Part shown: in pieces, positions 53,222-53,733 of the stretch
Position numbering within the stretch: position 1 is the stretch's first letter
Layout of the letters: each line of letters starts with the position of its first letter
From: Escherichia coli
GTDB taxonomy: Bacteria > Pseudomonadota > Gammaproteobacteria > Enterobacterales > Enterobacteriaceae
Reading direction: 5' to 3' (one strand)
Assembly (NCBI RefSeq): GCF_013122565.1
Contig: NZ_CP053258.1
Length of the DNA: 64,000 nt
Notes under the pieces: generated by a model
Database searches by the model: none
Told to the model about the DNA's origin: nothing
Seen by the model: the letters and a program-made list of their open reading frames with translations, nothing else
Translations under genes and position numbers: made by a program

Positions 53222-53532
53222 AACAATTTCCCTTCATTGAATGAATGGAGATTTACCCAAAAACATTTCGGGCGGGATCGAGTATACACAACTAAAGCAT
53301 GCGAATTACGGCGCGGGGAATTAGTGATGGAGTTTTAGGATAATTGGAATGAATATCAAATATAAGCTTCAGCTCATATATAAATAACACTAAAAATCAT
53401 AAGCTTAAAATAAAAATAAAAGTAATTAATCTGCGTATTTTCCGAAATCAATCACGCTTAAAAATCTATTTTAGGATTAACCTCACGGTATGATTTTCGT
53501 TAAATAACAGACAAGAGGATTTATCTGATAAA

Positions 53533-53561
53533 ACAATGCCGACTTATAGTCGGCATTGTTA
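53533..53561. terminator. perfect hairpin downstream of pgi / upstream of yjbE
   Basis: aacaatgccgac-ttatag-tcggcattgtt; on the minus strand it is followed by gtttta. Confidence 0.4.
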
Positions 53562-53628
53562 TTAAGGTTATTTAATTAACCGTGCTATGCATTAATTGCC
53601 GAATACGATGTACATATCGGCATCGACC

Positions 53629-53712
53629 TGTAGGCCTGATAAGACGCGTAAAGCGTCGCATCAGGCACCAGTTGCCGGATGCGGCGTAAACGCCTTATCC
53701 GGCCTACATAGC
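53629..53712. repeat. REP/BIME element downstream of pgi
   Basis: gtaggcctgataagacgcgtaaagcgtcgcatcaggc ... gccggatgcggcgtaaacgccttatccggcctac. Confidence 0.65.
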
Positions 53713-53733
53713 GGCATCAGGCATGAACGATGA

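Follow-up and report, generated by a model that had tools for sequence, protein, structure and literature searches.

On the minus strand of the window, by which we mean the whole 64-kb stretch of DNA that was analysed, the pgi gene is followed by a spacer of exactly 512 bp (53733–53222, from the pgi stop codon to the yjbE start), by yjbE and then by yjbF, yjbG and yjbH. The gene names pgi and yjbE come from RefSeq, where they are annotated in the homologous region of thousands of E. coli genomes. As both genes are encoded on the minus strand, the spacer must be read from the stop codon of pgi through to the start codon of yjbE. The features recognized in the spacer and at its borders are collected in Table 1.

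In 200-bp windows, the GC content is 0.29–0.35 across positions 53200–53600 as compared with 0.52–0.65 in the flanking genes, and it reaches its lowest value, 0.25, in the 200 bp starting at 53333; less than 2% of the 200-bp windows in the 64 kb have a GC content of 0.29 or below. The pgi-proximal 170 bp of the spacer are filled by GC-rich REP DNA. A preliminary description of this DNA had called the spacer very AT-rich in comparison with its flanks, which is true for the yjbE-proximal two-thirds only. It had also placed a single REP unit in the spacer; REP DNA is indeed present, as a BIME made up of two complete REPs in inverted orientation. The inverted repeat that it reported is perfect, as claimed, with a stem of 13 rather than 11 bp and with coordinates that have to be shifted by one position.

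Over the 651 bp from 53150 to 53800, the best-matching complete E. coli genome is 97.4% identical and K-12 is 93.4% identical, the YjbE protein being 100% identical. Comparison with E. coli RefSeq genomes showed that the spacer is far more variable than the flanking sequence. The small open reading frames of the spacer (32 residues at 53292–53390 on the minus strand; 35 and 45 residues over the REPs) are situated either in REP DNA or in AT-rich DNA of poor conservation. On the other side of pgi, the lysine riboswitch RF00168 is matched at 55620–55816 on the plus strand (99.5 bits), upstream of lysC, a gene oriented divergently from pgi. This riboswitch is also present in three of the compared loci (L004, L011 and L013).

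Table 1. Features of the pgi–yjbE spacer and its borders, in the direction of transcription of pgi and yjbE. A dot marks features given without a strand.
Feature	Position	Strand	Basis
pgi CDS (glucose-6-phosphate isomerase)	53734–55383	-	Stop codon at 53734–53736; ORF list and RefSeq annotation of the homologous E. coli region
pgi 3' UTR	53530–53733	-	From stop codon to the terminator end mapped in K-12; 190 nt in K-12, 204 nt here
REP fragment GCATCAGGCA, 10 nt	53714–53723	.	Direct repeat; inside a 13-nt stretch missing from K-12
BIME, two REP palindromes in inverted orientation	53629–53708 (53629–53666 and 53674–53708)	.	Inverted repeats; Rfam naRNA4
Degenerate palindrome similar to a REP, at the distal end of the REP block	53593–53624	.	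72% identity to REP segment 53687–53718; small hairpin fold
Imperfect duplicate (80%) of the last 20 nt of pgi (53733–53752)	53575–53594	.	Direct repeat; comparison of occupied and empty sites
pgi terminator hairpin, 13-bp perfect stem, 3-nt loop	53532–53560 (arms 53532–53544 and 53548–53560)	-	Fold, comparison with chance, K-12 RNA ends, position
Terminator U-tract UUGUUUUAU, overlapping the outer stem	53536–53528	-	K-12 3' ends at the equivalent of 53532–53530
U-rich tail UUAUCAGA after the 13-bp stem	53524–53531	-	Sequence
Rfam RF02053 (STnc430) match	53418–53567	+	72.8 bits, gathering score 47; the hairpin is its 3' stem-loop
AT-rich core, read as yjbE upstream regulatory region	53333–53532	.	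GC content 0.25; orthologous spacers 0.30–0.38
Box A TCAGATAAATCCTC, candidate RcsB site	53515–53528	-	One mismatch from the RcsB box; conservation block 53528–53517 TCAGATAAATCC
Box B TGAGGTTAATCCTAAAA, including TCCTAAAAT, candidate RcsB site	53469–53485	-	One mismatch from the RcsB box; conservation block
Box C ATTTCGGAAAATACGCA, candidate, resembling the lower-affinity RcsB form	53432–53448	-	Conservation block 53448–53441 ATTTCGGA
Conserved block ATGATTTTTAG	53390–53400	-	Alignment conservation
Box D, second copy of ATCCTAAAA, candidate RcsB-type half-site	53333–53349	-	Direct repeat; conservation block 53341–53333
Continuous conserved block over the predicted core promoter and 5' UTR and the first part of the CDS	53293–53192	-	Nine-species alignment
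Predicted -10 hexamer TATACT within the invariant block GTTGTGTATACTCGAT	53281–53286	-	Invariant in nine species
Predicted yjbE 5' UTR, about 53 nt	53222–53274	-	Folds in 11 species
5'-terminal leader hairpin	53255–53273	-	95.7% paired, one compensatory pair, several G–U intermediates
Hairpin sequestering the Shine–Dalgarno sequence, UCUCCAUUCAUU paired with AAUGAAGGGA	53225–53253	-	Almost invariant
Shine–Dalgarno sequence AAGGGA	53229–53234	-	Sequence
yjbE CDS, 80 residues	52979–53221	-	ATG at 53221; ORF list; 100% identity to RefSeq YjbE

The pgi terminator and the REP block

The perfect hairpin in the middle of the spacer has a free energy of -19.2 kcal/mol (z = -7.1 in comparison with shuffled sequences). 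Perfect hairpins with a stem of at least 13 bp occur twice in the 64-kb window and were not found in any of 60 dinucleotide shuffles. The second of the two belongs to another gene: it is the terminator of sraL (10692–10722), the sraL small RNA being matched at 10583–10723 on the plus strand with 153 bits.

On the minus strand, a U-rich run (GUCGGCAUUGUUUUAU) comes after the stem, with UUUUAU following the hairpin, and runs of seven to eight T follow the stem on the same strand in all orthologues. A G residue is found in the U-run of this allele, as it is in the natural isolates XJ34 and 503829. With this G the stem has 13 bp, as compared with 9 bp in K-12 (-13.7 kcal/mol), and only UUAU is left after the longer stem. 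A scan for consensus promoters and terminators did not report the hairpin as a terminator because the long stem takes in part of the U-run, so that the rule for the tail fails.

The 3' ends of the pgi transcripts have been mapped in K-12. Term-seq gave a 3' end at 4235595 (plus strand), and the sequence flanking it is exactly that of the orthologous hairpin (PMC7815308). By SMRT-Cappable-seq, a full-length transcript was found which extends from 4233721 to 4235597 and covers only b4025 (pgi); 39 and 52 reads end at 4235597 while none passes through, the data covering M9 and rich medium (PMC6131387). The K-12 hairpin occupies 4235570–4235592, and both mapped ends are situated in the U-tract that follows it, which by transfer of coordinates corresponds to 53532–53530 in the present strain.

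The position of the hairpin also follows that of pgi. In E. coli 503829 and in Escherichia albertii, which do not have the REP block, it starts about 16–17 nt past the pgi stop codon, and with seven other genera included the distance is 14–27 nt. The arrangement with the hairpin after pgi also occurs in Citrobacter, Enterobacter, Superficieibacter, Kluyvera and Mangrovibacter, and a G+C-rich hairpin with a T-run was found within about 100 nt of pgi in most of the approximately 30 Enterobacterales loci. When nine sequences were aligned, all eight core pairs were found to be kept (100% pairing), three of the eight with changes on both sides (from G–C to A–U and similar). As a control, the 3' partners were slid by one to three columns, which reduced pairing to 13–56%. 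The pair count omits two hairpins from Citrobacter which the MAFFT alignment had placed one column out of register; their stems are also perfect.

The position after the pgi stop codon, the covariation and the RNA 3' ends of K-12 together identify the hairpin as the intrinsic terminator of pgi, with ends that are mapped in K-12 and carried over to this strain. RNA polymerase arriving from pgi would stop here at the hairpin and its U-tract, as has been shown for the K-12 orthologue. Termination at this site would end the pgi mRNA and shield yjbE from transcription initiated at pgi.

As the pgi transcripts of K-12 run to the U-tract of the hairpin, the REPs fall inside the pgi 3' UTR, and they thus belong to an untranslated region of about 190–200 nt. 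The REP pair shows what is typical of REP and BIME elements: imperfect palindromes of about 35 nt, inverted pairing, extragenic location and multiple copies, the search query matching at a median of 28 places in each E. coli genome. The Rfam model naRNA4 matches the pair with 81.3 bits (gathering score 59.5). The window contains four REP pairs matched by naRNA4, namely the pair in the spacer and three others, indicating that this model simply detects BIMEs. REPs in the 3' ends of mRNAs have a general role as stabilisers. By analogy, the REPs transcribed with pgi probably stabilise its mRNA at the 3' end.

The 20-nt duplicate of the pgi end marks the far edge of a 158-bp REP block that is lacking in some E. 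coli strains. This block is polymorphic: at least 80% of the query is covered in 3608 of 5426 E. coli genomes, and those sampled among the others are without it. The duplicate bounding the block looks as if an insertion had duplicated its target. A further rearrangement was seen in E. coli 20AR0300, where an IS1A element has inserted past the REP block and ahead of the terminator, and thus parts pgi from its terminator. The site of IS1A is equivalent to 53591–53598, with a match overlap of 8 nt at the junction.

The AT-rich region and the predicted short leader of yjbE

The approximately 250 bp of AT-rich DNA past the terminator would be non-transcribed upstream DNA of yjbE. An alignment of nine species from the terminator to yjbE revealed a mean column identity of 0.64 in the distal 240 columns as compared with 0.84 in the proximal 90. 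Apart from the continuous block at the proximal end, conservation is found in short islands, which include the four boxes listed in Table 1. The RcsB box has the consensus TN(G/A)GAN4TC(T/C)NA (PMC7913699). Boxes B and D contain TCCTAAAA, which, like the TCCTAAAAT of box B, has been quoted as the canonical right half-site of RcsB in a preprint that also names yjbE among its salt-induced candidates (bioRxiv 10.1101/2025.05.13.653802). Box D is located about 60–75 nt upstream of the predicted yjbE start. A pattern search for the RcsB box gave two matches with one mismatch in the spacer and 39 in the whole window, where 60 were expected, so that the pattern as such is not enriched and carries no statistical power within one sequence. 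Supported by their conservation, boxes A to D are candidate sites for RcsB or RcsAB.

According to the literature, yjbEFGH is activated by RcsA–RcsB and repressed by RpoS, and envelope stress as well as osmotic stress induces it. Together with motifs conserved in nine species, this reported Rcs regulation makes it very likely that the AT-rich part of the spacer is regulatory DNA for yjbE, and the earlier view that the spacer is not empty is borne out to this extent. The Rcs phosphorelay would act through the conserved motifs on a weak sigma-70 promoter with TATACT as its -10 hexamer and no conserved -35 hexamer.

Silencing may be added to this type of control. H-NS prefers AT-rich, curved promoter DNA. 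The AT-rich tract could be a target of H-NS, possibly together with Fis or IHF, and be silenced by this binding; RcsAB would then act partly by anti-silencing. In favour of this, the GC content goes down to 0.25 over 200 bp, which is within the lowest 2% of the window, and the AT-richness is kept in the orthologues. RcsB partners are also known to relieve H-NS repression at other loci, as with BglJ–RcsB. On the other hand, the high-affinity motif TCGATAAATT has just one match in the spacer, with two mismatches, and no H-NS ChIP is reported in the titles and abstracts of the papers found to name both yjbE and H-NS. We regard silencing as a tentative proposal, with a probability clearly below even; it would complement the interpretation of the spacer as pgi 3' UTR plus yjbE control region and not replace it.

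The predicted -10 hexamer of yjbE gives way to TATAAT in Erwinia psidii and to TACACT in Pantoea, the distance to the 5' hairpin of the predicted leader being unchanged. A conserved -35 hexamer was not found at the yjbE promoter, and its absence suits a promoter that depends on an activator. From the invariant -10 hexamer and the conserved sequence past it, the transcription start of yjbE is predicted near 53274, about 7 nt downstream, which results in a predicted leader of about 53 nt. A start site for yjbE was not found in the supplements of Kim 2012 and Ettwiller 2016 or in the SMRT-Cappable-seq data.

The predicted leader folds into two hairpins, one at its 5' terminus and one that would sequester the Shine–Dalgarno sequence. 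This architecture is kept from Escherichia through to Erwinia, and no Rfam family corresponds to it. In 4428 of 5420 E. coli genomes, the 78-nt segment consisting of promoter and leader has an identity of at least 99%. When a second copy was sought across E. coli genomes, such as one in a paralogous operon, the promoter and leader were found in one place per genome. The arrangement of the two predicted leader hairpins might be a translational switch which gates the synthesis of YjbE in response to temperature, a small RNA or a protein; alternatively, and with less to recommend it, STnc430 (see below) might be a real antisense RNA that shares the pgi terminator. We consider it unlikely that the locus holds a novelty of this kind. 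If true, a leader switch would gate YjbE synthesis separately from the Rcs control of transcription.

Another hairpin is located just after yjbE, in the spacer between yjbE and yjbF. It has a perfect 10-bp stem (ATAACCACAC-N4-GTGTGGTTAT, 52888–52911) and also occurs in Mangrovibacter, Erwinia and Pantoea, where it is followed by a T-run. Possibly it works as a partial terminator and so fixes the ratio between yjbE and yjbFGH.

Other readings of the spacer and comparison with known systems

The terminator hairpin is part of a match to the Rfam family RF02053, which models the small RNA STnc430 on the opposite strand. The hairpin could accordingly be read as the terminator of an antisense RNA extending over approximately 53418–53567 on the plus strand, which would make it bidirectional. 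The score exceeds the gathering threshold, and all orthologous spacers match the family, always antisense to pgi and yjbE. A sigma-70-like site (ATAACA, 16 nt, TAAAAT) is present at 53384–53411 on the plus strand, just upstream of the match; in the alignment, the first T of TAAAAT is invariant and hexamers similar to TAnAAT occur in most species. In several orthologues an A-run is located 5' of the stem, corresponding to a U-run on the other strand.

Several observations are against this reading. STnc430 is listed for the Salmonella pgi/yjbE spacer in the orientation -> <- -> and in the class ‘previously predicted’ (PMC2515195, Table S3). It is a computational candidate for which both libraries yielded 0 cDNA reads and for which the Northern blot column reads ‘not probed’ (Sittka 2008, Table S3, PMC2515195). 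E. coli Term-seq lists no 3' end on the opposite strand at 42355xx–42356xx (PMC7815308). The RNAalifold consensus for that strand consists of the terminator hairpin and a 3-bp stem and nothing else, and the conserved islands are short motifs, which are more typical of DNA bound by proteins. In addition, the sequence that follows the stem on the plus strand in this strain, AUUAAGGU, makes a poor U-tract. We therefore give an antisense RNA at this site little credence: RF02053 probably captures a conserved terminator together with conserved DNA motifs, not an RNA gene, and the case is a caution for automated scans that report STnc430 as a small RNA.

The least tenable reading is that of the preliminary description, in which the whole spacer is one long 5' leader of yjbE; the hairpin would then be an attenuator or other regulatory structure. 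The spacer is long and clearly non-random, as this reading would have it, and the AT-rich tract contains weak promoter-like sequences (in K-12, for example, ATGATT, 16 nt, TATAAG); but pgi transcripts of K-12 end in the U-tract of the hairpin with zero read-through, the position of the hairpin tracks the pgi stop codon and not yjbE across genomes, no cis-regulatory Rfam family is matched in the spacer, the DNA between the hairpin and the -10 hexamer is poorly conserved and does not contain a conserved structure, and the candidate distal promoter is conserved in E. coli and one Citrobacter only, all of which makes a long leader highly improbable and assigns the hairpin to pgi rather than to yjbE. 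A second, distal promoter of yjbE may exist, AT-rich DNA being rich in weak promoter-like sequences.

The spacer most probably consists of two ordinary units placed end to end, the 3' UTR of pgi and then the control region of yjbE. All its elements are of known kinds, and the key one, the terminator, has already been mapped experimentally in K-12. The practical value of the analysis is a correct annotation: ‘pgi terminator’ is the proper label for the hairpin, the REPs should be assigned to the 3' UTR of pgi, and the AT-rich tract should be marked as an upstream control region of yjbE with a predicted short structured leader.

In comparison with RF02053, the spacer shares the locus, the hairpin and a score above the family threshold. 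It differs in that the family models the opposite strand and was founded on a candidate that has never been detected. Furthermore, the hairpin is the only element that is structurally conserved here, and the remaining conservation fits DNA motifs of a yjbE control region.

The promoters of exopolysaccharide operons controlled by RcsAB (cps/wza type, with an RcsAB box) offer the closest parallel for that control region. The yjbE upstream region differs from them in having several dispersed candidate motifs instead of one defined box, with motif positions that are given relative to a predicted start. It resembles them in the reported activation of yjbEFGH by RcsA–RcsB, in the conserved candidate motifs similar to TNRGA-N4-TCYNA, in the candidate TCCTAAAA half-sites, and in the absence of a conserved -35 hexamer.

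The terminator agrees with known intrinsic terminators in its G+C-rich perfect stem, after which the sense strand of the upstream gene has a U-run, in the K-12 RNA 3' ends within this U-run, and in the compensatory changes which keep the stem across genera. It departs from them in this strain, where a G breaks the U-run and the stem is lengthened to 13 bp. In REP-less relatives the terminator is found 14–27 nt past the pgi stop codon, as compared with about 170 nt of intervening REP DNA here.

The REP block itself corresponds to REP and BIME elements known from 3' UTRs, with two imperfect palindromes of about 35 nt in inverted orientation between stop codon and terminator, with many copies in the genome and with a presence that varies among strains. 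There is nothing unusual in it; its individual traits are the additional REP debris and the diverged duplicate of the pgi 3' end that forms its boundary.
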